Positions 6,906-22,595 of a stretch of 64,000 bases of DNA are shown piece by piece. The DNA comes from an uncultured Candidatus Saccharibacteria bacterium. Lineage in GTDB: Bacteria; Patescibacteriota; Minisyncoccia; Phycocordibacterales; UBA2100. Position numbers and translations under genes: made by a program. The notes under the pieces are model-generated. The model was not told the DNA's origin. It did not search any database and worked only from the letters and a program-made list of their open reading frames with translations. Within the stretch, counting starts at the first letter, position 1. Every line of letters begins with the position of its first letter. Location of the stretch: NCBI GenBank assembly GCA_964462785.1, contig CAYWZA010000003.1, positions 1 to 64,000 of the forward strand, written 5' to 3'.

Positions 6906-9047
6906 ATGCACACAAGCGATCTGCTGGAGAATCTGTTTCGATTGGCGGCGCCGCAAAGATCGGCGCTGCGTCGACTCGGAATCCTAACGGTGCACGATCT
7001 GCTCTACCATTTCCCTGCGCGTTATGATGCCCCCGGAACGACAGGGACGGTGAGTAATTTGCGGCACGGCGAGAAAGTAACACTCTACGGCACACTCTCG
7101 AAAGTCGAAGCGAAGCGCCTCTGGAAAAGCCGCCGCCCCGCTGCTGAAGGTATGTTCGAAGACGGCACAGGGCGCGTGAAAGTACTGTGGTTCAACCAGC
7201 CCTATCTGGCAAAGATGGTTCCGCAGCAGGTGATGGTGAAGCTCACCGGCACCGTCGCAGGAAACGACCGCCCGTATATCACCAATCCTGAGATCGAGCC
7301 GATCGCGAATAGTGCTATTCCTGAAAGGCTGTTTTCGAGAGATGCGCCGACAAACAGCTCTGAGATCTTTCCGGTGTATCCGGAATCGCACGGCATCACA
7401 AGCCGCTGGATGTATCACGCGCTCAAGAAAATTTTTGAGAGCGGTGTGCTCAACGAGCTCGAGGATCCGCTGCCGGATAGTGCCCGCGAACGCTATCATT
7501 TACCTGATCTGAAGACTGCGCTCGTGTGGGTGCATATGCCTAAATCAAAGCGTGACGCTGAGGCGGCGCGTAAACGATTTTCGTTTGAAGAAATTTTCAC
7601 CATCCAGCTTGCCCGTGCGCTCGAGCGCAAAGAGAATGACACACAATCATCGTTTTCGATCACCGTCGATGATGCGCGTATCCGCGCGTTCATAGAAACA
7701 CTCCCCTTCCCGCTCACCACGGCGCAGGAGCGCGCCATCGCCGATATCCTTGCGGATTTTAAAAAGCCGCACCCGATGGCGCGCCTCCTTGAGGGCGATG
7801 TCGGCTCGGGTAAAACGGTAGTCGCTGCGGTAAGTGCGTACGCCGCCGTCACTTCTCGCCCCAAAAACCGCATGAGCGGCACACTGCAAGTCGCCTACAT
7901 GGCACCGACTGAAATCCTCGCTGCGCAGCACTTTCAATCGTTCATCGAATTCTTTAAGGAGCTCCCGATTAATATCGGGCTCATCACGGGGAGCGGCTGC
8001 TATAAATTTCCTTCGAAAGCCAATCGGGACAAGCCGACACCAATATCACGTGCACAGCTTTTGAAGTGGGTCGCGAACGGTGAAATTGCATTTCTGATCG
8101 GCACGCATGCGCTTATACAGAAAAGTGTGAAATTCGCGCACTTAGCGTACGCGATCGTTGATGAACAGCATCGCTTTGGCACCGCCCAGCGCAAAAAACT
8201 CGCACACAAAGGCGATGCGCCTCCGCATTTTCTTTCAATGACCGCAACACCTATTCCGCGCACGCTCGCGCTCACTATGTACGGCGATTTGGATCTCTCC
8301 ATTCTAGATGAGCTACCGAAAAATCGCGCGGGCGTCGAAACGCTCATTGTCCCCAAGGAGAAGCGCACTGGCGCATACGAAGCAATGCGTGCAGAAATCG
8401 CATCGGGCAGGCAGGCATATGTCATCTGCCCGCGCATTGACGAACCTGATCCGGAAAAAGAACTTGCCCTCCTCGTGAAATCGGCAAAGGCGGAGGCGGC
8501 TCGACTCAAAAAAGAAGTGTTTCCTGAATGTGCTGTCGGGCTCCTCCACGGTAAAATGAATCAGAAAGAAAAAGATGCGGCGATGCATGCGTTTGCATCA
8601 GGTGGCACACACATTCTCGTCGCCACATCGGTCGTCGAGGTCGGCGTAAATGTGCCAAACGCCACTATGATGATCATCGAGGGTGCGGAACGATTTGGAC
8701 TTGCACAGCTGCACCAGCTGCGCGGGCGCATATTGCGCAGTTCGCATCAGGCATATTGCTATCTCTTCCCCACTGGTGCTGCGGGAGTCAAAAATGAGCG
8801 GCTCAAGGCAGTCGCAAAAACACGCGATGGCTTTGCCCTTGCAGAAGCAGATTTGCAATTGCGCGGCGCAGGCGATTTATATGGTCGCGCGCAGTGGGGC
8901 ATGTCGGATCTTGGTATGGAAGCGCTCAAAAACCCTCGTCTCATCGAAGCTGCGCGCGAAACAGCGCAGTCCGTTGCCCAAGGTCCCCTGAATGACTCGC
9001 TGAGAGGACGGCTCGCGCACGTGTTAGAACAACTGCACGCTGAATAG
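6906..9047 (+). CDS. recG: ATP-dependent DNA helicase RecG
   Basis: Walker A GDVGSGKT, DEQH box (VDEQHRFG) and helicase motifs QLRGRILR. Confidence 0.9.
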   Translation: MHTSDLLENLFRLAAPQRSALRRLGILTVHDLLYHFPARYDAPGTTGTVSNLRHGEKVTLYGTLSKVEAKRLWKSRRPAAEGMFEDGTGRVKVLWFNQPYLAKMVPQQVMVKLTGTVAGNDRPYITNPEIEPIANSAIPERLFSRDAPTNSSEIFPVYPESHGITSRWMYHALKKIFESGVLNELEDPLPDSARERYHLPDLKTALVWVHMPKSKRDAEAARKRFSFEEIFTIQLARALERKENDTQSSFSITVDDARIRAFIETLPFPLTTAQERAIADILADFKKPHPMARLLEGDVGSGKTVVAAVSAYAAVTSRPKNRMSGTLQVAYMAPTEILAAQHFQSFIEFFKELPINIGLITGSGCYKFPSKANRDKPTPISRAQLLKWVANGEIAFLIGTHALIQKSVKFAHLAYAIVDEQHRFGTAQRKKLAHKGDAPPHFLSMTATPIPRTLALTMYGDLDLSILDELPKNRAGVETLIVPKEKRTGAYEAMRAEIASGRQAYVICPRIDEPDPEKELALLVKSAKAEAARLKKEVFPECAVGLLHGKMNQKEKDAAMHAFASGGTHILVATSVVEVGVNVPNATMMIIEGAERFGLAQLHQLRGRILRSSHQAYCYLFPTGAAGVKNERLKAVAKTRDGFALAEADLQLRGAGDLYGRAQWGMSDLGMEALKNPRLIEAARETAQSVAQGPLNDSLRGRLAHVLEQLHAE

Positions 9048-10855: not shown

Positions 10856-10928
10856 CCGCCTGTAGCTCAATGGTTAGAGCACGGAGCTTATACCTCCGGG
10901 GTTCCTGGTTCGAGTCCAGGCAGGCGGA
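10856..10928 (+). tRNA. tRNA-Ile with anticodon UAU (reads AUA)
   Basis: Manual fold: 7-bp acceptor stem CCGCCTG/CAGGCGG, D-arm GCTC/GAGC, anticodon stem CGGAG/CTCCG with loop CTTATAC, T-arm CCTGG-TTCGAGT-CCAGG, discriminator A, no encoded CCA. Confidence 0.75.
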
Positions 10929-10978
10929 CAAATTCGAGCAAAGCGAGAATTTTCCGTCAGGAAAAATACTCGTGACGA

Positions 10979-13666: not shown

Positions 13667-14665
13667 CTATTCAACGATACTGACTAGAGCTTCTTGCATC
13701 AGTTGTTTTGCAAACACATACCCCCGCTCGCCCGCTTCTCGCACCACCTGTCGATTCGTAGAGAGATATGAAATATCTTCGTGCACTTCCGGCGCGATGA
13801 TGCACCAGCGGATTTTTTTGCGCTCGCGCGGTGCCGGTCGTGTGGATTTTTTGAAAAGACCAATGAAAAATTCTTTCCACGTAGTTGCCTTGCGACGCGT
13901 GAGCATCTGCAGCTCGTATGCCATCACACTATCCATAGCAGCGGCACGATCACGCAATGAGCGCGGCATGCCGCGCAGCCACATGTACAGACGTCCAAAC
14001 CAAGGAAACAAGTGTAATTCGATCCACCCCATGTGTTCCGGAAGTGGTCGGTTGAAGATGATGAGTATATCAGTCGGTCGATATTTTTTTGCGATGTGTC
14101 TGATGGGAAGCGGCATACCAAATGCGCCATCACAGACCTGCCTGCCATCAATATGCACCGTGCCGGAGCATAAATCAGGAATCATCATCGACGCTTGTAC
14201 TGCTTCCACTGGATCAGCGGCTTGTTTAACGTCAATAGCCAGATATTTTCCGGTACTGAATTCAGTCGCATACACGATGAAGTCGGAGCGGTTGTTACGG
14301 AGCGCAGTGTCACTGATCGCCCGCAGCACTGTGGTGACCTGATCGATATGCATCTTAATGCCCCAGTTTTTTCTTACGATGAAATTGTTCAGCGTAAGAC
14401 TGGCGAAAATAGATCGCGCGAGTTTCGGTCTGCCGCTCATCACGCCAAACTGAACCGCAGCCCCACCGGAGACCGCCGCGCGCGCATCTGGCGCGTCGGG
14501 GGCATGTTCTGCTATTGCTTCAGCAACACCAGCCCCGTGCACGCACGCCATACCCCCGCCAAGCATGAGCTCCACAATTTTAAATGGCGGTTTCTCACCT
14601 CTATCGAGAGCGCGCTGTTGCAGAATGTAATTGACGAGCACTTGTTTGTTACCGAGCACTTGCAT
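13667..14665 (-). CDS. Patatin-like phospholipase
   Basis: GGGxxG-like LGGGMACVHG, serine-motif region VSGGA, DGA(F) Asp motif. The ORF extends upstream to 14875, but the conserved domain starts near the internal Met. Confidence 0.5.
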   Translation of the reverse strand: MQVLGNKQVLVNYILQQRALDRGEKPPFKIVELMLGGGMACVHGAGVAEAIAEHAPDAPDARAAVSGGAAVQFGVMSGRPKLARSIFASLTLNNFIVRKNWGIKMHIDQVTTVLRAISDTALRNNRSDFIVYATEFSTGKYLAIDVKQAADPVEAVQASMMIPDLCSGTVHIDGRQVCDGAFGMPLPIRHIAKKYRPTDILIIFNRPLPEHMGWIELHLFPWFGRLYMWLRGMPRSLRDRAAAMDSVMAYELQMLTRRKATTWKEFFIGLFKKSTRPAPRERKKIRWCIIAPEVHEDISYLSTNRQVVREAGERGYVFAKQLMQEALVSIVE

Positions 14666-14759
14666 CGCTCCCTCCTTTCTTTTTGGGTATGAGTTTTTCC
14701 TTATACACTCTCTCAACTGTAGGGGGACAAGTGACTTATTGCACGGTATAGTTATCCAC

Positions 14760-15197
14760 ATGGTGTTGATAAGAAATAAAAAGGCACATCTGGAGTATGC
14801 TTTTCTTGAGAAATTCGAGGCGGGTTTGGAATTGCTGGGGCTTGAGGTGAAATCACTGCGTGCCGGCAGGGGCAATTTGGAGGGTGCGCGCGTCGTTGCG
14901 CGCGGCGGCGAAGCGTATTTGGTGGGAGCAACTATTCCCCCATATCAGGCAGGAAATACGCCAAAAGAGTACGATCCTGAGCGCACGCGGCGGCTATTGC
15001 TCTCAAAGCAAGAGATCGCGCAGGTGGCTTCCGCTGAGGGCGCAGAGGGCTTGACAGTAGTGCCTATTGCGGTGTATAATAAAGGGAGGAATTTAAAGCT
15101 TGAAGTCGCCATCGCGCGCGGCAAAAAGAAGTATGATAAAAGGCAGGATTTGAAGAAGCGCGACGAAGAGCGGCGTTTCAAGCGGAAAGAATTTTGA
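14760..15197 (+). CDS. smpB: SsrA-binding protein SmpB
   Basis: SmpB-like sequence (KKAHLEYAFLEKFEAGLELLGLEVKSLRAG...). True start is an internal ATG of the listed ORF. ssrA lies downstream. Confidence 0.85.
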   Translation: MVLIRNKKAHLEYAFLEKFEAGLELLGLEVKSLRAGRGNLEGARVVARGGEAYLVGATIPPYQAGNTPKEYDPERTRRLLLSKQEIAQVASAEGAEGLTVVPIAVYNKGRNLKLEVAIARGKKKYDKRQDLKKRDEERRFKRKEF

Positions 15198-15460: not shown

Positions 15461-15915
15461 TAACGAGTGCTTGAGTGTGGCACTGAACTTTTATCACAAG
15501 GATGCCCACGCATGGGCAAAAAAACAGACTCACTAAAACAGTATCGGGAGTACCTTAACTCCCACAACGATCAGCTCGAGAGTTTCGAGCAATTGCATAT
15601 CGAGGCACGCGCAACCGCGCATTGCCGAGGGTCGCCTGAGCCAGAGATCGGTAGGGATGAGCTCTACTACCAAGGAGAGCTCGAATTCACCGATGGTCCC
15701 AGTGGTCCACTCACGCGGGCTTTTCGTTGACACTTCGGTGGGGAGAGCCACAACTCCCCGCCACACTTAAGCACTCGTTATGATGACGAAGGTCCGACCT
15801 TCGTCAGAAAAGCACAGCCAGTCCCCGTGAGATATTAAACATTCAGCAGAGTACACAATTCAGTAATTCAGTTACGAAAGCGACTCGGTAGCAGAAACGA
15901 TTTTGGTATCTCACG

Positions 15916-16302
15916 GGGGGTGACTTGGCTTCGACATTGAGTTACGTGTTTTGAAGTGCATGACAGAAGTGAGCGTCTTCTTAAAAAAGCTCAAAACCTA
16001 AGTGCAAATAAAACAGCACGGGGGATTCTTTCACCTATTCAGATGAAAGATCTCGGCTTCGTTTACGCTACGGCCTAAGCGACCGTGTGCCTGTCTGACA
16101 TCCGATGAGATAGAGCGCACGTCATACACTTCGGATCCGACTTTCTTGCGCACCAAAGAAAGTTTAAAGAAAGAGTGCTCGGCATTGTAGGATCTTGTGT
16201 GTTCCCTACCTACAGCGCTTAAACAAAACATGAACGCACTACGTCATGTAGACAGTTCCTAACATTCCTCTTTGGACTCGGGTTCAATTCCCGACACTTC
16301 CA
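15916..16302 (+). ncRNA. ssrA: tmRNA (ssrA)
   Basis: 5' end GGGGGUGACUUGGCUUCGAC parallels E. coli GGGGCUGAUUCUGGAUUCGAC. 3' tRNA-like end GGACUCGGGUUCAAUUCCCGACACUUCCAC-A with a G3-U70 pair. Candidate resume codon GCA at nt 89 (16004) in the context UAAAAAAGCUCAAAACCUAAGU-GCA. Adjacent smpB. Confidence 0.8.
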
Positions 16303-16304
16303 CA

Positions 16305-16352
16305 GGTAAAACAAAAACGCTGCACTCATTAGTGCAGCGTTTTTGTTTTACC
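16305..16352. terminator. 22-bp perfect palindrome (GGTAAAACAAAAACGCTGCACT-catt-AGTGCAGCGTTTTTGTTTTACC) directly 3' of ssrA
   Basis: Seen directly. Likely a bidirectional terminator. The stop codon of the LAGLIDADG gene lies in the loop. Confidence 0.6.
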
Positions 16353-16781
16353 TGGCTTGATTTGAAGAAACCTTTCTGCAAATTTCAAACGTTGCTTGAG
16401 TAAAGTTGGCGAATATTTGCCATTGCGGGGTGTTAGCGCAACATAACGATTGAGCGCGAACGTAGCCCTTCCCTTTTTATATCCGCGCAAGAAAGGTGTG
16501 ATTTGTCGAAGTACATCCAGGGCTTGTCTGCTGTAAATTTGATATGCAAAGGAAGGTGAGTGCTTATCTTTTGATCTGGTCTTTCTGGTGATTTTTCCCA
16601 CTCCAATGACACGACGTGCGTGTTCCAATAAACCATATTCAGTACTACTGATCGTTACAGCGAGATGCCGTTGGGCATTCTTCTGTTTATAAGTAAGAGT
16701 GATTGTGCCCTCACCATCAACCAACCCCGCCAGATATGCGGCGTCTGTTGTGCTCATATTTTTTGCGATTTTCTTACTCAT
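16329..16781 (-). CDS. LAGLIDADG homing endonuclease (single-motif, free-standing)
   Basis: LAGLVDGEG motif near the N-terminus; 150 aa is typical of homodimeric LAGLIDADG enzymes. Confidence 0.85.
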   Translation of the reverse strand: MSKKIAKNMSTTDAAYLAGLVDGEGTITLTYKQKNAQRHLAVTISSTEYGLLEHARRVIGVGKITRKTRSKDKHSPSFAYQIYSRQALDVLRQITPFLRGYKKGRATFALNRYVALTPRNGKYSPTLLKQRLKFAERFLQIKPGKTKTLH

Positions 16782-16800
16782 GACTACTATTATATAGGAG

Positions 16801-17481
16801 ATGGGGCTATCAGCAACCAGTCCACATCCAGAAAGAAAGGCAACTTCGATGCGCGCAAGCGTTTTTTGTTTGCTGAATTCCGTATTTCAGACTGTTTGTT
16901 TGTTGACACGCGCCTCTTTTTCACCGATGGTGAACGTAGAATATTGGAGAGACCCCATGCACCACGAGACTGATGCTGAGTGGCACCGGCTGGAGTGCCT
17001 GTGTGCAGACTCTTTCGCCGAGTTGGTGGCAATCGCGATTAATGAACTGCATAAATTTCCTACTGGGTGCGAGCTGGTATGCGGTCCCATCACGACCGGC
17101 GGGCGCGGTAGCGTCGCTGAAAATATCGCAGTCTTTAACGCGACCATCCAAGCTCTACAAGCGCAAGGCAGACCTATCTTCAGCCAGCTGCCGTACGAAG
17201 AGCGTATATTCTTCTTTCGAAAGCGCTGGCTCGATGCTGATCCTTTACGCAAGGGGCAATATTACATGCCCATCCTTGAAGATTTTTATCATCCGCTTAT
17301 TAAAACGGGTCATATAAAAAAGGGGTGGTTCATCCCTGGGTGGGAATCGTCGCTTGGCGCCACATGGGAGCGCCAACATCTGACAGAAACTGCTGTAGAA
17401 GTCTGCGATCTCTCCAGCGATTGGGTTGACGAGGTCTTGCGTTCTGCGCAGAGCGACGGCACTGGATACACCCCGCAATAA
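16801..17481 (+). CDS. DUF4406 / nucleoside 2-deoxyribosyltransferase-like domain protein (often phage-associated)
   Basis: LVCGPITTGGRGSVAENIAVFNATIQALQAQG resembles the DUF4406 core. The true start is probably an internal Met. Confidence 0.4.
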   Translation: MGLSATSPHPERKATSMRASVFCLLNSVFQTVCLLTRASFSPMVNVEYWRDPMHHETDAEWHRLECLCADSFAELVAIAINELHKFPTGCELVCGPITTGGRGSVAENIAVFNATIQALQAQGRPIFSQLPYEERIFFFRKRWLDADPLRKGQYYMPILEDFYHPLIKTGHIKKGWFIPGWESSLGATWERQHLTETAVEVCDLSSDWVDEVLRSAQSDGTGYTPQ

Positions 17482-17570
17482 CATGCGGGGTCTTTTTTAC
17501 ACCATTGTTACGCCTTGCACCACCATCGCACCGCTGTACAGTAGAAACAGAACAATCATAGGAGCATAGT

Positions 17571-18164
17571 GTGCAAAATGTCTTCGCGCTCGCGGCAGGC
17601 ATCCTGCTTTTTGTCTCACTGATCATATACATAGTAAGTATCGTGTGCGGCAAGACCGTGCCCACTCGAGGCAGCTGGGTCACATGGGCAACGGTCGATA
17701 CCGCTCTCATCATCGGTATGTATGCCGAGGGTACGGTAAATCCGCAAATCCTCGTCGGCGCGATGGGCACCATCATGGTTGCACTTCTGTCGTTCCGCTA
17801 CGGCACGCCCACCTGGACGTGGCTCGAGAAAACATCACTCAAGATTCTCCCCGTTGGATTATTGCTCTGGGGTGTGAGCGGCAATGCACGTTGGAATATC
17901 TCCATCAGTCTCATCCTCATTACTATTGGCTGCCTGCCCACCTATCAATCGATGTGGGAAAAGCCAGAATTGGAAGATCGTGTGGCGTGGACGACGGCAT
18001 TTGTCTCTTCGATTGCAATGGTGCTTGCGCTTCCCCCGATCACTTTCGCATGGGAGATGATAGAGGTGTCTGCGCAGCCGATCACATTCCTGCTGACACA
18101 GATACCCATCATGTATCTGCTGTGGGTGCGCCCAAAAAAGAAAGGAGCGGAACGATGTCCCTGA
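17571..18164 (+). CDS. Multi-pass membrane protein (paralog 1)
   Basis: Five to six hydrophobic helices. Shares blocks with the next ORF (PTYQSMWEKPE / PTWASAWEDPK; YLLWVRP). Confidence 0.5.
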   Translation: MQNVFALAAGILLFVSLIIYIVSIVCGKTVPTRGSWVTWATVDTALIIGMYAEGTVNPQILVGAMGTIMVALLSFRYGTPTWTWLEKTSLKILPVGLLLWGVSGNARWNISISLILITIGCLPTYQSMWEKPELEDRVAWTTAFVSSIAMVLALPPITFAWEMIEVSAQPITFLLTQIPIMYLLWVRPKKKGAERCP

Positions 18165-18736
18165 CATTTTCTGCATTGGCGGCGATATTTTCGATACTTG
18201 CATCAATCGTATACGTGCACGGTATTTTGTATCGAAATAAGCAGCCTGTTAAAGCAAGCTCTATTCTCGGAAAATTATTTACCATCGCGACATTTATCGG
18301 CATGTGGCAGAAAGATGCTGTGAACGGGCAGATACTTGTTTCAGTGCTGAGCATCTTCGTGAGCACTCCGCTCACATTGCTTTACGGACGACCCGGGTGG
18401 GCACCCATCGATATCGTGTGCTTTACGCTCGGCGTATGTGGATTGTTTGTGTGGACGTTCATACAAACACCTGAAGTAGCAATTTTTGTCGGTCTATTCG
18501 TGCTTTTTATCGGCAGTGCCCCTACATGGGCATCGGCATGGGAAGATCCGAAACGAGAAAACAAAATAAGCGTATCACTCGGTATTGTTGCTTCACTGTG
18601 TGCATTCGCATCTGCGACAGACATGTCGTTTGCACATATTGCGCAGCCGATCGCGTTTCTGATCATGCAATGCATCATGGTGTATCTGTTGTGGGTAAGA
18701 CCGTACTATCTGGCAAAAGGAAAAACCCCGCACTGA
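18155..18736 (+). CDS. Multi-pass membrane protein (paralog 2)
   Basis: Starts at an internal ATG (MSLTFSALAA) of the listed 363-aa ORF, whose first half is out of frame with paralog 1. Conserved C-terminal motif YLLWVRP. Confidence 0.5.
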   Translation: MSLTFSALAAIFSILASIVYVHGILYRNKQPVKASSILGKLFTIATFIGMWQKDAVNGQILVSVLSIFVSTPLTLLYGRPGWAPIDIVCFTLGVCGLFVWTFIQTPEVAIFVGLFVLFIGSAPTWASAWEDPKRENKISVSLGIVASLCAFASATDMSFAHIAQPIAFLIMQCIMVYLLWVRPYYLAKGKTPH

Positions 18737-18757
18737 AACAGTGCGGGGTTGTTTACA

Positions 18758-19888
18758 TTATGCGGGCATCAATACTTTTGCAGAATGTTTGTGCGAAAAG
18801 TATGCCATGCGCCGCGTGTGTTCGTTGAGATACCATTCGGTGTCGACGAATTCAGGCGGTGTTGCGAATCCCTTGGGCTTTCCCCTCACCACGATGTGAT
18901 TGGCAACGAGTGAGATACCGATTGACGTCATGATCTGCATCGCGGTGAAGCCGGTTTCCGGATCCTTGTACATATCATAGCGAATCGGCTCACCCTTATC
19001 GCCCGACACAGCAAGCACGACATGATCGGAGTCACGCTGCAGATTAAACTGCAACTCCGGATCATTGCGCAGCCTATCTGCAAGCTTTTCCGGTTGGCTC
19101 GTATAACGCCACCCTTCTTTTTTGAGTCGCGCTACATGACCCACATACCGCAGCGTCTCGTAGTTGTGCTCCTGCACGCCAAGCGCGAGCAATTGTTCCA
19201 CCATGAATCGCGAGTGATGCGAGGTTGGCGTCGATTCGAATTCATCGTCATTAAACGACGCGATAGTGCCCACGGCTGGTATTTCGACCAACTGTCCGTG
19301 GCGAATCTGCGGGCAAAATCCGGTGTATCCGCTCGCCGTACCTTCAGCGCTGTACATGAGTTTATACATAAGCGGATTCCTTGCCGGATCCGGACGCGGG
19401 TACGGATTGCCACCACAGCGCACATACACCTCTTTGCATCCATCGTGTTTCACTTTGTGCATCGTAGCGATGTTTGCACTGCCTGGTGAGAGACCGCATT
19501 CAGGAGCAATTAATGTTTCAGAGCCGCGAGCAAGCGCTGCTTGCTGCGCCACTACTTCACCACAGCCACCCAAATCGCACAGCGGCACTCTCCACTGCAG
19601 CGCATCTTTCGTGAGCTCGATGTTTTGCGCATGCGGTGCGCATGAAATTGCGACCTCAACACCTTCCCAGGTCAGCACACTTGGCTGTGCAAAATAGTGA
19701 ATCTTTTTTGCCAATTTTTCGCCAAGCAGCTCCTTAAAGCGGCGCATGCTTTCGTCCAGCGCGCTCTGTCTTTCCCAGCGCGGATCGATAGCTTTAACCG
19801 AATCCACCCTGCTGAACATCAGCTCGTTAAAGACAGTTGCTATTCCCATACCACCACCTGCGCCATAGACGGCAACACGATAGGTCAT
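18758..19888 (-). CDS. Saccharopine dehydrogenase-family NAD(P)-binding oxidoreductase
   Basis: N-terminal Rossmann motif VAVYGAGGGMG and overall similarity to saccharopine/carboxynorspermidine dehydrogenases. Start at an internal Met. Confidence 0.5.
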   Translation of the reverse strand: MTYRVAVYGAGGGMGIATVFNELMFSRVDSVKAIDPRWERQSALDESMRRFKELLGEKLAKKIHYFAQPSVLTWEGVEVAISCAPHAQNIELTKDALQWRVPLCDLGGCGEVVAQQAALARGSETLIAPECGLSPGSANIATMHKVKHDGCKEVYVRCGGNPYPRPDPARNPLMYKLMYSAEGTASGYTGFCPQIRHGQLVEIPAVGTIASFNDDEFESTPTSHHSRFMVEQLLALGVQEHNYETLRYVGHVARLKKEGWRYTSQPEKLADRLRNDPELQFNLQRDSDHVVLAVSGDKGEPIRYDMYKDPETGFTAMQIMTSIGISLVANHIVVRGKPKGFATPPEFVDTEWYLNEHTRRMAYFSHKHSAKVLMPA

Positions 19889-19962
19889 GTTTTCTACTCC
19901 TTTGAAAACTGTATGCACACTACACCCGTCAAATCGAGGGTGCAACGCGATATAATAAAAAA

Positions 19963-21240
19963 ATGATCAGCCAGAAATACGCCCTCACAGCGCTGCTGCT
20001 ATGTCTCGTGTGCAATACCCCATCCGCAGAGGCGGGCATCCAAGCCGCAACGGCAGACCAATGCGTCGCCATGATTGCAGCCGGCATCAAAAAAGAGGGC
20101 GAATGCATCGCGGGGAAAACCATCATCGATGACGCGACGGAAGCGCTCATTCACGCAAGCGCGGGAGCAAAATCCCCAGCTGCTTTTTTGGAAGATCACG
20201 CGTGCAAAAATACCCACATAGCGTGCCTTGATCCACAATTTTCAGCACTCGTGCAGCAATTTTATCTCGCTGGAGAAGCGGTGGGAAAACAGGAGGGTTG
20301 GCAAATGCCTCGCCTCACCGACGGTTGGCGATCGCCAGAGAGTCAGTTGAAAGCGGTGGTATCTGGGGCAAGCAAGGTGGGTCCCTGCGGCTCGCCACAC
20401 AATTATGGACTGGCTGTGGACTTTAACGATCCTCCGCTGAATAAAGGCCTCTCGCCGGCAATGAAATGGATGCGTGCGAACGCACGAAATTATGGACTTG
20501 AGGTTATTGGAGAATGGGACCCTGCACACTTTCAAATAAAGGGGTGGGCAAATCGTAGCGTGGCTCGAGGTCAGTGCATCACCGGCTGCACCGCTCCAGC
20601 TTCCGGAAAAATACAAAGCTGCACGGGAGGCGGCGGGGGTGGAGGCATTCTTGCAAACACCGGAAATGCACTCAGTAACGCATTCTCACAACTCACTCGC
20701 CCCTTCAGCAGCATGATGCAGCCAGAACCAGTAATTCCTCCCCCGCCTCCCCCAGCTGCGCTGCCGGTTGCAACAAGCACGATGCTGAAAGACGCGTTTA
20801 GAGCTCCAGCAACGCAATTCCCCACCTCCACATCTGCGCAATTCCCCTCCACACAAAATGCAAAACAGCCCGAGCCCAAAACATCTGAAGATATTTTGAC
20901 GCAGATTGCTGTCGGCAATCCAAATACTCCCCCCACCCCTGCGACGACCACTCGCCCGCTTACTGCGGAAGAACAGCAGCGCCTGCATGATCAGCAGGTA
21001 TTGCTGCAAGCCACCACTCCCGCATCCAACGTGGTGCCGACTTACACTCCCGTCATTCCTCCCGCATCCTCATTTGCCGGCTTCTCTCCTTCGGAATTCG
21101 CCGTCAGTGATATCAGCACTCGCGCGTGGTATGACCTCTATATCACCACGCTCACGCGCGTTGCGCTCGCGATCGGCGAGACAATCCGCATCATGAAGGG
21201 AGAACCGTCATCAAATACTATCGAGGGGTACTACGAATAG
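19963..21240 (+). CDS. Secreted VanY/M15-type D,D-carboxypeptidase-like protein with a Pro/Thr-rich linker and conserved C-terminal motif
   Basis: Signal peptide. SxHxxGxAxD motif (SPHNYGLAVDF) and WDPAHF second-His motif. Poly-Gly and PT-rich low-complexity region. Confidence 0.65.
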   Translation: MISQKYALTALLLCLVCNTPSAEAGIQAATADQCVAMIAAGIKKEGECIAGKTIIDDATEALIHASAGAKSPAAFLEDHACKNTHIACLDPQFSALVQQFYLAGEAVGKQEGWQMPRLTDGWRSPESQLKAVVSGASKVGPCGSPHNYGLAVDFNDPPLNKGLSPAMKWMRANARNYGLEVIGEWDPAHFQIKGWANRSVARGQCITGCTAPASGKIQSCTGGGGGGGILANTGNALSNAFSQLTRPFSSMMQPEPVIPPPPPPAALPVATSTMLKDAFRAPATQFPTSTSAQFPSTQNAKQPEPKTSEDILTQIAVGNPNTPPTPATTTRPLTAEEQQRLHDQQVLLQATTPASNVVPTYTPVIPPASSFAGFSPSEFAVSDISTRAWYDLYITTLTRVALAIGETIRIMKGEPSSNTIEGYYE

Positions 21241-21260
21241 AGGTTGTATAATTAAATGTC

Positions 21261-22595
21261 ATGAGGTTTGGTTTGATACTGAGTATTGTTGTAGTTGCGT
21301 TCACTTCTCCCGTTTACGCCGTTGATTGCCCCGCGGGATCAAGCCCTCCCACTGCAGACGATATCAAGCTCGGCATCGGACGAGAAGGTGGCTGTGTTCC
21401 TGATACTGCGCGCTTAGTCGCGCAGGTGAAAGATGCCTCTGGAGCCATTACATATCTTGAAAGTAAAGTTTGCCCAGGAATGCAGGTTGGCTATGACGCC
21501 AGCATTAACCCTGCAATTCTGAAAGAAACGCGAGTGTATTTTACTGCAGACAACCAATCCATGGATCCAAAATTCGTCGTCTGCGCCGCACGATTTGTGC
21601 AGGAGGCAGAAAAATCATTGCAATTCCCCATCTGTGTAAAAGCTGCCCTGCGAAGCATCGCGCATCAACGTGCCTCATGTTTAGACCCTAGCAATGGTGG
21701 AAAAGTTTGTGGCAACCGCGGTGGATGTAGTAGCTTCGGGCACTGTCCGCACGTAAATGGAGCTGCTCTGGACATCAATCCAACCGGTCACAAGCGTGGT
21801 ACACCAGAAGGCGACAGGAGATACAGGATGATGCATGCATTTGCGCGCACAAATGCATCACTGGGCGTTGCATTCACTGCAATGAACATCGATGATTGGC
21901 CTCATATCGGTCCCAACGGTCAATCAAATTGTTCAGACCCGAATTTTAAAGCGCGCGGTATCAGCGACAGCGACCTCACTCCTCCCGCTTCGCCGAGAGG
22001 CGTTCTGGATCGCATCATGCAACCGCTGCGCGACTTCATAAACCCACCGCAATCAATGATGCCCCCATCGCCAAGTTCCTCACTTCCTCCAGTGACCAAC
22101 ACCGGTACGGTACTGGATTCAATTCCTGCGCCAAAACAAAATCCTCCTCCCGCACAATTTCCTACTACCGATTTCCCGCCCACCTCAATCCCACCAAGAC
22201 CAAAAACTCCCGAAGATGTCTTGCGCGATATTGCCGTAGGCCCGCCAAAGACAAGCCCTGCAACGACAACAGCGACTTCAACACGACCGCTTACGGATGA
22301 AGAAAAAATCCGCCTCGCTGCGCAGCAGGTGGGTATTCCCGCGAATTTTCCAACAAACAACACGCCTCAACCGAGCAATACTGCCCCAACCGCCCCGACT
22401 TCTGAATTTGCCGGATTCAACGGATCGCCAGCGGTAATGCCCAATAACTCTTCAGACGAATTTTTACGCCTTTATGTGCAAACGCTCACACGCGTTGCGC
22501 TTGCTATTAATGAAATAATAAGGATTATGAAGGGTGAACCGAGATTAAACGCAAATATGCAGCCAGAGCAGCGCATTGAACTCTGGGTTGAATAA
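21261..22595 (+). CDS. Secreted VanY/M15-type peptidase paralog
   Basis: HCPHVNGAALDI (HxxGxAxD) and DDWPHI. C-terminal LYVQTLTRVALAINEIIRIMKGEP matches the upstream paralog. Confidence 0.65.
   Translation: MRFGLILSIVVVAFTSPVYAVDCPAGSSPPTADDIKLGIGREGGCVPDTARLVAQVKDASGAITYLESKVCPGMQVGYDASINPAILKETRVYFTADNQSMDPKFVVCAARFVQEAEKSLQFPICVKAALRSIAHQRASCLDPSNGGKVCGNRGGCSSFGHCPHVNGAALDINPTGHKRGTPEGDRRYRMMHAFARTNASLGVAFTAMNIDDWPHIGPNGQSNCSDPNFKARGISDSDLTPPASPRGVLDRIMQPLRDFINPPQSMMPPSPSSSLPPVTNTGTVLDSIPAPKQNPPPAQFPTTDFPPTSIPPRPKTPEDVLRDIAVGPPKTSPATTTATSTRPLTDEEKIRLAAQQVGIPANFPTNNTPQPSNTAPTAPTSEFAGFNGSPAVMPNNSSDEFLRLYVQTLTRVALAINEIIRIMKGEPRLNANMQPEQRIELWVE

Follow-up and report, generated by a model that had tools for sequence, protein, structure and literature searches.

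The ssrA locus and its convergent neighbour

The window analysed in this study, i.e., the whole 64,000-nt stretch of DNA from an uncultured Candidatus Saccharibacteria bacterium (contig CAYWZA010000003.1), carries a free-standing gene for a LAGLIDADG homing endonuclease immediately downstream of ssrA, the gene of the transfer-messenger RNA (tmRNA). On the forward strand, ssrA occupies positions 15916–16305 (3′ end at 16303/16305) and was recognised by ARAGORN as well as by the Rfam model RF00023 (112 bits, full length), both of which describe the standard one-piece, uninterrupted form. Its T-arm (16278–16294, forward strand, TCGGG TTCAATT CCCGA) is followed by the 3′ strand of the acceptor at 16295–16301 and the discriminator A at 16302, and a terminal CCA is not encoded. 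The gene for SmpB lies upstream of the tmRNA gene (14763–15197), and a hidden Markov model (HMM) of related tmRNA introns matched nowhere in the window.

At the final bases of the tmRNA gene starts a perfect palindrome (16303–16354), whose 24-nt arms (16303–16326 and 16331–16354) are 100% complementary and enclose a 4-nt loop; its fold energy of −39.6 kcal/mol (z = −9.6) was reached by 0 of 200 shuffled sequences. The endonuclease open reading frame (ORF; 16329–16781, reverse strand) converges on ssrA from the opposite strand, 24 nt past the tmRNA 3′ end. Its stop codon TAA (16329–16331) sits in the loop of the palindrome, the right arm of which codes for its last eight codons, and the structure can serve as a putative bidirectional intrinsic terminator for both converging genes. 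An initial annotation of this stretch had described the gene as antisense, with its stop codon inside the ssrA terminator, and as lying outside any intron or intein, and this picture holds, as the ORF lies outside the tmRNA gene and the intron HMM remained blank in the window. Inspection of the region upstream of the endonuclease gene (16782–16857, reverse strand) revealed a TATAAT-like hexamer (complement of 16789–16794) 7 nt ahead of the ATG; a consensus promoter scan called no promoter for the gene, this hexamer included.

Sequence, fold and constraint of the endonuclease

The gene encodes 150 aa of the single-motif I-CreI type, as assigned from Pfam, PHROG and PADLOC matches and a structure model. 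The protein scored 30.1 bits against Pfam LAGLIDADG_1 (gathering threshold 23.1), also passed the gathering threshold of LAGLIDADG_3, and matched phrog_5046 (E = 3.5e-21), with PADLOC returning generic homing endonuclease (HEase) models only. The motif LAGLVDGEG spans residues 17–25, and the catalytic acid corresponds to E24 in DGEG. Our protein collection holds 681 homologs. Among the matches listed (the top 120, the window's own protein aside), identity ranges from 51 to 67%, so that the nearest of these is 67% identical, and lengths run from ~140 to 240 aa, mostly ~145 aa; their hosts are Gammaproteobacteria, Nitrospira and lineages of the candidate phyla radiation (CPR).

Across 30 diverse family members, 30 columns are invariant, including D22, G23, E24 and G25, and a C-terminal LTPRNGKY motif is likewise invariant in the family. 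The window copy is a full-length ORF that keeps all 30 of these residues, the sole change being a C-terminus with 6–8 extra codons reaching into the terminator arm. When the family profile was compared to solved structures, I-MsoI came first (8e-11) and the bI3 LAGLIDADG maturase (2ab5) second, and I-CreI was also matched. The AlphaFold2 (AF2) model of the window protein (mean predicted local distance difference test, pLDDT, 93.4) shows the expected alpha-beta-beta-alpha-beta-beta-alpha order, and the Foldseek top 40 are I-CreI, I-MsoI and I-CvuI, superposed over the full length with template modelling (TM) scores of 0.65–0.72 over ~150 columns (E ~3e-8). Moreover, the ratio of nonsynonymous to synonymous substitution rates (dN/dS) was 0.05–0.23 in the 17 family pairs with usable, i.e., unsaturated, dS. 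On the basis of the invariant motif residues, the profile and structure matches and the low dN/dS, the protein is an intact, constrained member of the I-CreI-type LAGLIDADG class, with presumed nuclease activity; by analogy with enzymes of this size and fold, it would act as a homodimer.

Carriage of the family by phages or plasmids was considered and rejected. The best relative in viral contigs reached 39% identity and those in GenBank phages at most 35%, and no family member was found on plasmids.

Association of the family with tmRNA genes

The first four homolog contexts (a Thioalkalivibrio locus twice, Parahaliea and a CPR contig) all had a tmRNA gene next to the endonuclease gene. One genome per species was then scanned with the family profile, giving 465 candidate stretches that encode a relative, a figure that takes in more distant LAGLIDADG relatives, and the best 80 loci were inspected by combining an nhmmer tmRNA profile, Rfam, a 3′-exon pattern and the intron HMM. 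Their hosts comprise Gammaproteobacteria, Betaproteobacteria, Nitrospirota, at least six CPR lineages, Anaerolineae, Limisphaerales and Fraserbacteria, and some of the loci from metagenome-assembled genomes (MAGs) are possibly mis-binned or mis-assembled (L075, L078, L054). The linkage to tmRNA is near-obligate: tmRNA-derived sequence adjoins the endonuclease gene in 74 of the 80 species-level loci, and five of the remaining six are cut by a contig end 53–415 nt from the gene, the sixth being a locus with full flanks (L023).

The most frequent arrangement by far (60/80 loci) comprises a tmRNA gene split in its T-loop by an intron, with the endonuclease gene downstream on the same strand; here, an intron of ~250–320 nt follows TTCGAT and is itself followed by the 3′ exon (TCCCGCC...CCACCA), a terminator and then the gene. 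One locus has the T-loop intron with a convergent gene (L060) and another has the gene inside the intron (L082). Intronless tmRNA genes account for twelve loci, six with the gene on the same strand (a Halieaceae clade, one Nitrospira and one gammaproteobacterium) and six, all CPR, with a convergent gene within ~25–45 nt, like the window. The last six (L023 and the five with a contig end near the gene) are uninformative in this respect. The window is an ordinary member of the family.

A homologous T-loop group I intron is thus present at the presumed target in 62 of the 80 related loci (intron HMM E 1e-10 to 1e-66) and absent from the window tmRNA. In 61 of these 62, the intron carries no endonuclease gene, which instead lies downstream of the 3′ exon and terminator; across the 62, the median gap between the tmRNA CCA end and the gene is 75 nt. 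The intron boundaries, U(−1) and a terminal G at loop position 6/7, correspond to the main tmRNA intron site reported previously (PMC11915505). The Rfam family Intron_gpI scored 43 and 34 bits on such introns, under its gathering threshold of 50. ARAGORN found a tmRNA in just 11 of 86 related loci and missed every intron-split gene, the low yield being due to the fact that most of these tmRNA genes are intron-split or have odd T-loops; Rfam truncates the intron-split genes at the T-loop.

Several loci deserve a separate remark. In Candidatus Fraserbacteria (L082:2972-3699), the T-loop intron holds the endonuclease gene, placed after the 5′ splice site and ahead of the guide sequence and enclosed by a 10-bp closing stem (GAGGTTATGG/CCATAACCTC), a location that differs from the P7.1 and after-P9 sites described for tmRNA introns (PMC11915505). 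A striking share of metagenome contigs (L010, L012, L028, L031, L035, L048, L061, L062, L064, L066, L067 and L083) start inside the tmRNA gene or intron, 50–600 nt upstream of the endonuclease gene, and the contig that Logan assembled from the same sample as the window breaks off at the 5′ end of the tmRNA gene too (L001, L101). Co-existing alleles are one possible cause of such breaks, conserved sequence common to several genomes in the assembly graph another. Since its contig ends there, L101, a second assembly of the same sample, is uninformative on polymorphism at the locus.

Empty sites and cassette boundaries

Relatives with an empty site were found via SmpB. In the nearest of them, which are moderately close (L087–L093; 79–83% SmpB identity), the endonuclease gene is absent from the same site, and the order reads patatin, SmpB, tmRNA, one membrane gene, saccharopine dehydrogenase, a 425-aa gene and an AI-2E transporter, with just 110–180 nt between tmRNA and the membrane gene. 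The gene content 3′ of ssrA, which the initial annotation had proposed to compare among relatives, is not identical. DNA homology between the window and L091 extends over 15915–16320 at 91.6%, stops there and resumes at 18245, and the 1.9-kb surplus of the window comprises the endonuclease gene, a DUF4406-like gene and the first of two membrane protein paralogs.

Two CPR loci, one empty (L094) and one filled (L007), are closely related to each other, with flanks that are 93% and 88% identical. Here, a 541-bp cassette in L007 replaces 19 nt of L094 at the tmRNA end and left terminator arm. In the window, the last stretch shared with L091 (16308–16321) is 86% complementary to 16858–16871 (forward strand; AGCGTTTTTTGTTT), 536 nt away, which was identified by a repeat search and would represent the displaced right arm of the ancestral ssrA terminator. 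The same 14 nt are a direct repeat of the new right arm (16336–16349). This arm is short and on its own not beyond chance, and its support comes from its position and the L091 homology boundary. In the simplest reading, a mobile cassette of ~537 bp (~16321–16857), composed of the new right terminator arm, the antisense endonuclease gene and its upstream region, would have lodged in the loop of the ancestral terminator, between its two arms. The weak repeat evidence for these bounds gains support from the L091 boundary and from the matching cassette size in L007. G+C content is 0.44–0.46 over the cassette compared to 0.50–0.55 around it. Within the cassette, 16821–16831 (TCCACATCCAG) could be what decay has left of a second tmRNA acceptor end; the local alignment to the 3′ end of tmRNA plus terminator is weak (score 29, a value attained in 16 of 1000 shuffled sequences and in 10 of 350 windows of the genome).

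In Candidatus Kaiserbacteria CP070993 (L097:2819-3500), the interval from tmRNA to the DUF4406-like gene is taken up at this position by a different insert of ~630 bp. It contains a small ORF of ~70 aa and a T-arm-like fragment (GGTCGATTCCCGCC), and is flanked by direct repeats of the terminator 3′ half plus ~35 nt: TTCTAATA[T/C]TCGTTGAAA...GGAATCGAAA. Given this separate insert at the same position, the ssrA terminator of CPR genomes apparently acts as an insertion hotspot for small cassettes.

Relic tmRNA ends and T-arm variation

Insertion has left further traces in other members of the family. An intron-free second copy of the last 17–29 nt of the mature tmRNA lies just past the endonuclease gene in nine non-CPR loci and in two CPR loci (L015, L006); some of these relics then carry the same terminator. 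The 5′ ends of the relics fall in the T-loop or the 5′ T-stem. This is what would be expected if a block composed of (the intron,) a new 3′ end, the terminator and the endonuclease gene had inserted into the T-arm of an intronless tmRNA gene, with displacement of the former 3′ end, and the relic could act as right-hand homology arm in later repair.

In L057:2760-3510, L074:2769-2930 and L026:2835-2853, the endonuclease gene is surrounded by two or three incomplete copies of the tmRNA 3′ end, and in L018:1675-1824 by such copies of the tmRNA 5′ part. Such multiple partial copies suggest repeated insertion or conversion at the locus. In the CPR contig L006 (4456–4490), the T-loop apparently consists of 6 nt (TTCGCC) rather than the canonical 7 nt, and ARAGORN fails on it; this short loop may have been left behind by repair or may reflect a change that confers resistance at the presumed target site.

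The T-arms of intronless endonuclease-bearing loci often deviate from the consensus TTCGATT (intronless T-arm/acceptor consensus: GGACGCGGGTTCGATTCCCGCCGCCTCCACCA), for example with TTCGAAA or TTCGAGA in Halieaceae. Between L007 and L094, the tmRNA genes show 11 mismatches, 5 of them within the 17 nt of the T-arm (Fisher p = 0.002, or ~0.03 with compensatory pairs counted as single events), an indirect hint that would favour the T-arm as target. Further indirect hints at cutting of the cassette-free allele would be the relic boundaries in the T-arm and the T-loop intron of 62 of the 80 loci.

A probable cassette specialised for ssrA

We consider it probable that window positions 16321–16857 represent a ~0.54-kb cassette with a free-standing homing endonuclease specialised for the ssrA locus, the enzyme of which most likely targets the ssrA 3′ domain, as predicted for both activity and target site. 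The protein would be a homodimeric I-CreI-type enzyme of a conserved, tmRNA-dedicated family that cuts cassette-free ssrA alleles in or near the 3′ tRNA-like domain (T-arm and acceptor), where the near-palindromic DNA of the T-arm would suit a homodimer. Repair of the double-strand break from a cassette-bearing allele would then copy the cassette, with the tmRNA gene as one homology arm and, as the other, either the downstream flank or, in several other genomes, the tmRNA 3′ end retained as a second copy. Where a lineage has the intron, the host allele would be immune by virtue of it, and the intron would be co-converted, which corresponds to collaborative (trans) homing (defined in PMC3984707). 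In the window and other CPR genomes, which have no intron, the gene converges on ssrA and both would share a bidirectional terminator. Of the options raised by the initial annotation, an endonuclease mobilising independently is hence the one that the evidence favours, given its absence from L087–L093, L094 and L096, its presence in L007 and its linkage to tmRNA in 74 of 80 loci.

Several observations weigh against this interpretation. The target site is deduced, and cleavage is predicted from sequence alone. The nearest relatives available share ~80% SmpB identity and also lack the DUF4406-like gene and membrane paralog 1, and for this reason the window-specific indel measures 1.9 kb and not 0.54 kb. 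The flanking repeat is weak (p ~0.02–0.03), and in both CPR comparisons of filled and empty sites the junctions lie in the terminator, not in the T-loop. CPR T-arms vary equally with and without the endonuclease gene and provide no clean resistance signature. Furthermore, L023 carries the gene without a tmRNA recognisable to Rfam or nhmmer, and L054 has the intron, 3′ exon, gene and relic but no tmRNA body. The endonuclease tree largely follows host clades and, together with the strong purifying selection, would likewise be compatible with prolonged vertical inheritance or with a role for the host.

With respect to the two exceptional loci, L023:2995-3620 (a Candidatus Parcubacteria MAG) encodes an intact family member whose stop codon lies in a bidirectional terminator as in the window, with merely vague tmRNA-like strings after the gene, and is the sole full-flank exception to the tmRNA linkage. 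In L054:2600-3500 (a gammaproteobacterial MAG), only "TCGAT" of the 5′ exon is left and abuts an unrelated gene; the contig is chimeric, or else the copy is ectopic or rearranged.

A host function would imply a domesticated protein that has ceased to home and, e.g., assists the group I intron of the T-loop as a maturase or chaperone or regulates ssrA by binding to DNA or RNA. Besides the strong purifying selection (dN/dS 0.05–0.23) and the host-clade tree, the constant adjacency to tmRNA, the ORF-less tmRNA intron in most of the 80 loci and the second rank of the bI3 maturase (2ab5) among solved structures speak in its favour, and bifunctional endonuclease/maturases such as I-AniI exist. However, pure maturases such as bI3 have lost the catalytic acid, which is invariant in the motif of the present family, and in twelve of the 80 loci as well as in the window the gene occurs without any intron on which a maturase could act. 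The patchy distribution, with absence from the nearest relatives at the same site, and the insertion footprints in the form of cassette-like junctions, displaced terminator arms and relic tmRNA 3′ ends also argue against domestication, and we regard it as unlikely.

A different question is whether the window copy is still active. The T-arm and acceptor of the window (16267–16303) are identical to those of the endonuclease-less L091, a further point against the ssrA-specific cassette as proposed here: this sequence may not be the target, both alleles may resist cleavage, or the enzyme may be inactive or tolerated in this organism. The same identity would fit an inactive hitch-hiker, i.e., a once-mobile endonuclease that is now fixed and silent, too recently for decay to be visible. 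The lack of a promoter call in the consensus scan would be in line with such a state, as would the distance to the nearest homolog among the matches listed (67% identity) and the fact that selection was measured on the family and not on the window copy. Against it stand the full-length ORF with 30 of 30 family-invariant residues, the strong constraint on the family as a whole, a C-terminus altered just by its 6–8 additional codons into the terminator arm, and the TATAAT-like box 7 nt upstream of the ATG. We thus rate an inactive hitch-hiker as somewhat less plausible still than domestication.

Going beyond the single locus, the family could be the hitherto missing driver that mobilises the group I introns of the tmRNA T-loop, working through collaborative homing on bacterial chromosomes from a position external to the intron, with all proposed stages in the origin of mobile introns united in one family and with a portable homology arm. 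This joint reading is clearly more speculative than that of the window cassette, and we put it forward as a tentative proposal that may well turn out otherwise. The first stage, a free-standing gene beside an intronless target, is found in the window, other CPR genomes and Halieaceae; the second, a free-standing gene beside an ORF-less intron, in most Gammaproteobacteria and Nitrospira; and the third, a gene embedded in the intron, in Fraserbacteria (L082). If true, a cassette with a spare tmRNA 3′ end would have both repair arms within the universally conserved tmRNA gene, and spread between distant hosts would thereby be permitted.

Relation to known homing systems

Like I-CreI, I-MsoI and I-CvuI, the window enzyme has ~150 aa and one LAGLIDADG motif with a conserved acid, and it superposes on them over the full length (TM ~0.7); by analogy with the I-CreI type, it would cut a pseudo-palindromic site of ~22 bp as a homodimer. 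These enzymes are encoded in group I introns of organellar 23S rRNA genes, whereas the window enzyme is free-standing on a bacterial chromosome beside ssrA. Identity to them amounts to ~20–25%, and the invariant C-terminal LTPRNGKY is an extra of the window family.

Introns in tmRNA genes are known from 21 phyla, and endonuclease genes were reported in 36 of 883 tmRNA intron forms (~4%), located after P9 or in P7.1 (PMC11915505). The present family shares with these the host gene, T-loop position 7 and the LAGLIDADG superfamily, and in L082 its gene is truly internal. Unlike the reported cases, however, the gene lies outside the tmRNA gene in 61 of 62 intron loci and also where, as in the window, the tmRNA has no intron, and endonuclease genes outside the tmRNA gene are not mentioned in that study (PMC11915505). 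A literature search on LAGLIDADG or homing endonucleases with tmRNA or ssrA and on collaborative homing found no account of such genes beside ssrA, with tmRNA papers of 2002 and 2003 lying outside its coverage; the family is widespread and apparently undescribed.

Intronless and collaborative homing by free-standing endonucleases is established in phages (PMC3984707, PMC2790892, PMC6083498), and collaborative homing together with the "endonuclease invades intron" model has so far been documented in two phage systems (PMC3984707), namely F-CphI beside the psbA intron of cyanophage S-PM2 and T4 mobE with I-TevIII/nrdB. As in these systems, a free-standing endonuclease adjoins a conserved gene, with an ORF-less intron at the presumed target in most family members, and free-standing and intron-embedded forms coexist as predicted by the model (PMC3984707, PMC2790892, PMC6083498). 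The phage cases involve HNH or Endo VII-type enzymes with proven cleavage, whereas the present family consists of LAGLIDADG proteins with a presumed RNA gene target, resides on the cellular chromosomes of several phyla and is described here on sequence grounds. Also unlike the phage systems, some family loci add a duplicated gene 3′ end as a possible portable homology arm.

Integrase-dependent islands and prophages at the ssrA 3′ end use the same address, and, as with these, the tmRNA 3′ end is duplicated in several family loci, with the gene kept intact and the old end displaced. The cassette differs in its lack of a tyrosine or serine recombinase and in its size of ~0.5 kb as compared to 5–100 kb. 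In the window, moreover, there is no significant attachment-site (att)-like repeat, and the neighbours are ancestral.

In this context, tmRNA introns rarely carry an endonuclease, and one encoded just outside the gene could explain their movement. The family would also give a multi-phylum chromosomal test case for collaborative homing and for the "endonuclease invades intron" model. With regard to annotation, intron-split tmRNAs escape ARAGORN and are cut short by Rfam, and many metagenome contigs break at this place. If it is true that the enzymes recognise the near-universal T-arm of tmRNA, they could be of use as tools, namely as compact meganucleases whose target is conserved among bacteria. 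For the window itself, what had been proposed as a 3.6-kb island reduces to a selfish cassette of 0.54 kb amid neighbours in ordinary synteny.

Genes downstream of the cassette

The initial annotation had envisaged an ssrA-targeted mobile island reaching from 16305 to 19945, and a mobile, ssrA-linked insertion is what remains of this idea, confined to the endonuclease; the 3.6-kb extent is not upheld, as the distal genes are syntenic. The independent contexts of the neighbouring genes and their ancestral synteny argue that the 3.6 kb are not one element.

The first gene beyond the inferred cassette is DUF4406-like (16957–17481, forward strand), an assignment that is sub-threshold for the window copy itself (Pfam PF14359, 12 bits compared to a cutoff of 22, E = 0.28) while, of 32 full-length homologs, 13 do match DUF4406, at best with E = 3e-8. 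Its AF2 model (pLDDT 92.8) had no significant match in the Protein Data Bank (PDB), and the best weak structural matches include the nucleoside-deoxyribosyltransferase-like BlsM and MilB (TM ~0.4). A phage origin, as implied by the earlier description of the gene as common in phages, was rejected, since neither a PHROG match nor a relative in viral contigs was found for the window branch, and the family is confined to CPR lineages. Homologs with 58–63% identity lie directly 3′ of tmRNA without an endonuclease gene in the Paceibacterota loci L096 and L094, and in L007 the endonuclease gene stands between tmRNA and the DUF4406-like gene. Altogether, the gene adjoins tmRNA in L094, L096 and L097, is 2.5 kb off in L099 and is located elsewhere in L095 and L098.

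Two membrane protein genes in tandem follow, paralog 1 (17571–18164, forward strand) and paralog 2 (18161–18736, forward strand). Their relationship is real, as the initial annotation had recognised, and it is old (29% identity, E = 7e-27). Paralog 1 is lineage-specific: it is absent from the closest relatives, is 30–33% identical to their single membrane gene, and has no homolog in any other endonuclease-bearing locus. Paralog 2, in contrast, belongs to the ancestral synteny. The next gene (18758–19945, reverse strand) was correctly assigned to the saccharopine-dehydrogenase family (Sacchrp_dh_C, E = 4e-13). Orthologs of paralog 2 (54–63%) and of the dehydrogenase (51–54%) are found beside tmRNA in L087–L091 in the same order and orientation. 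PADLOC matched no defence-system model to the neighbour genes.

If the region were nevertheless a decayed integrase-type island (16305–19945) at the ssrA 3′ end, with the endonuclease, DUF4406-like, membrane and dehydrogenase genes as cargo and with integrase and att sites lost, the location at a classic integration site (PMC11915505) and the 1.9-kb surplus relative to L091 would be accounted for, and the ~630-bp insert with direct repeats at the same position in Kaiserbacteria (L097) illustrates that this site sees traffic. The syntenic presence of membrane paralog 2, the dehydrogenase gene, the 425-aa gene and the AI-2E gene in all relatives already contradicts such an island, however. No integrase or recombinase domain was detected in the scanned ORFs between 16305 and 23674, and no significant repeat of the ssrA 3′ end bounds 16305–19945 or occurs beyond 19.9 kb, so that the absence of both noted in the initial annotation is borne out and its suggestion of a decayed integrase-type element is abandoned. 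The best candidate for a duplicated ssrA 3′ end, at ~20815, scored 24 (shuffle mean 19.3, maximum 25) and lies in a coding region conserved with its paralog; it was rejected. The DUF4406-like gene, as part of a CPR-only family with no viral match that adjoins tmRNA without an endonuclease in L094 and L096, is likewise difficult to reconcile with island cargo. Of the proposed cargo, only the endonuclease gene and membrane paralog 1 are then particular to the window. Nor does base composition delimit 3.6 kb, as the DUF4406-like gene, membrane paralog 1 and the dehydrogenase gene have background G+C content and low values are restricted to the cassette and to the ancestral membrane paralog 2 (0.465–0.485 at 17900–18800), the latter for reasons that are unexplained. 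Overall, a decayed island is highly improbable, far more so than either domestication or inactivity of the endonuclease, and the small ssrA-specific cassette is preferred.

Further downstream, two tandem paralogous genes (19963–22595) encode secreted proteins of 425 and 444 aa with Pro/Thr-rich linkers, of which the 425-aa protein showed weak PHROG matches to endolysin and peptidase families (E = 3e-6). Relatives have one or two copies of this gene at the same place.

Genes upstream of ssrA

Upstream of smpB and ssrA, the window carries a tRNA-Ile gene (anticodon UAU) at 10856–10929 that adjoins ftsH. The related CPR contig L006 has the same tRNA-Ile(UAU) at 7972–8045 beside ftsH, giving a conserved order of tRNA-Ile(UAU), FtsH, SmpB and tmRNA. 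The mechanically called ORFs for a patatin-like protein (13667–14875, 402 aa) and SmpB (14631–15197, 188 aa) overlap head-to-head by ~245 nt; as the relatives' proteins have 328–338 aa (patatin) and 145–152 aa (SmpB), the real starts of both are probably internal. The first 34–44 residues of the patatin frame are, oddly, 68–76% conserved in relatives, because this part is antisense to the conserved N-terminus of SmpB.

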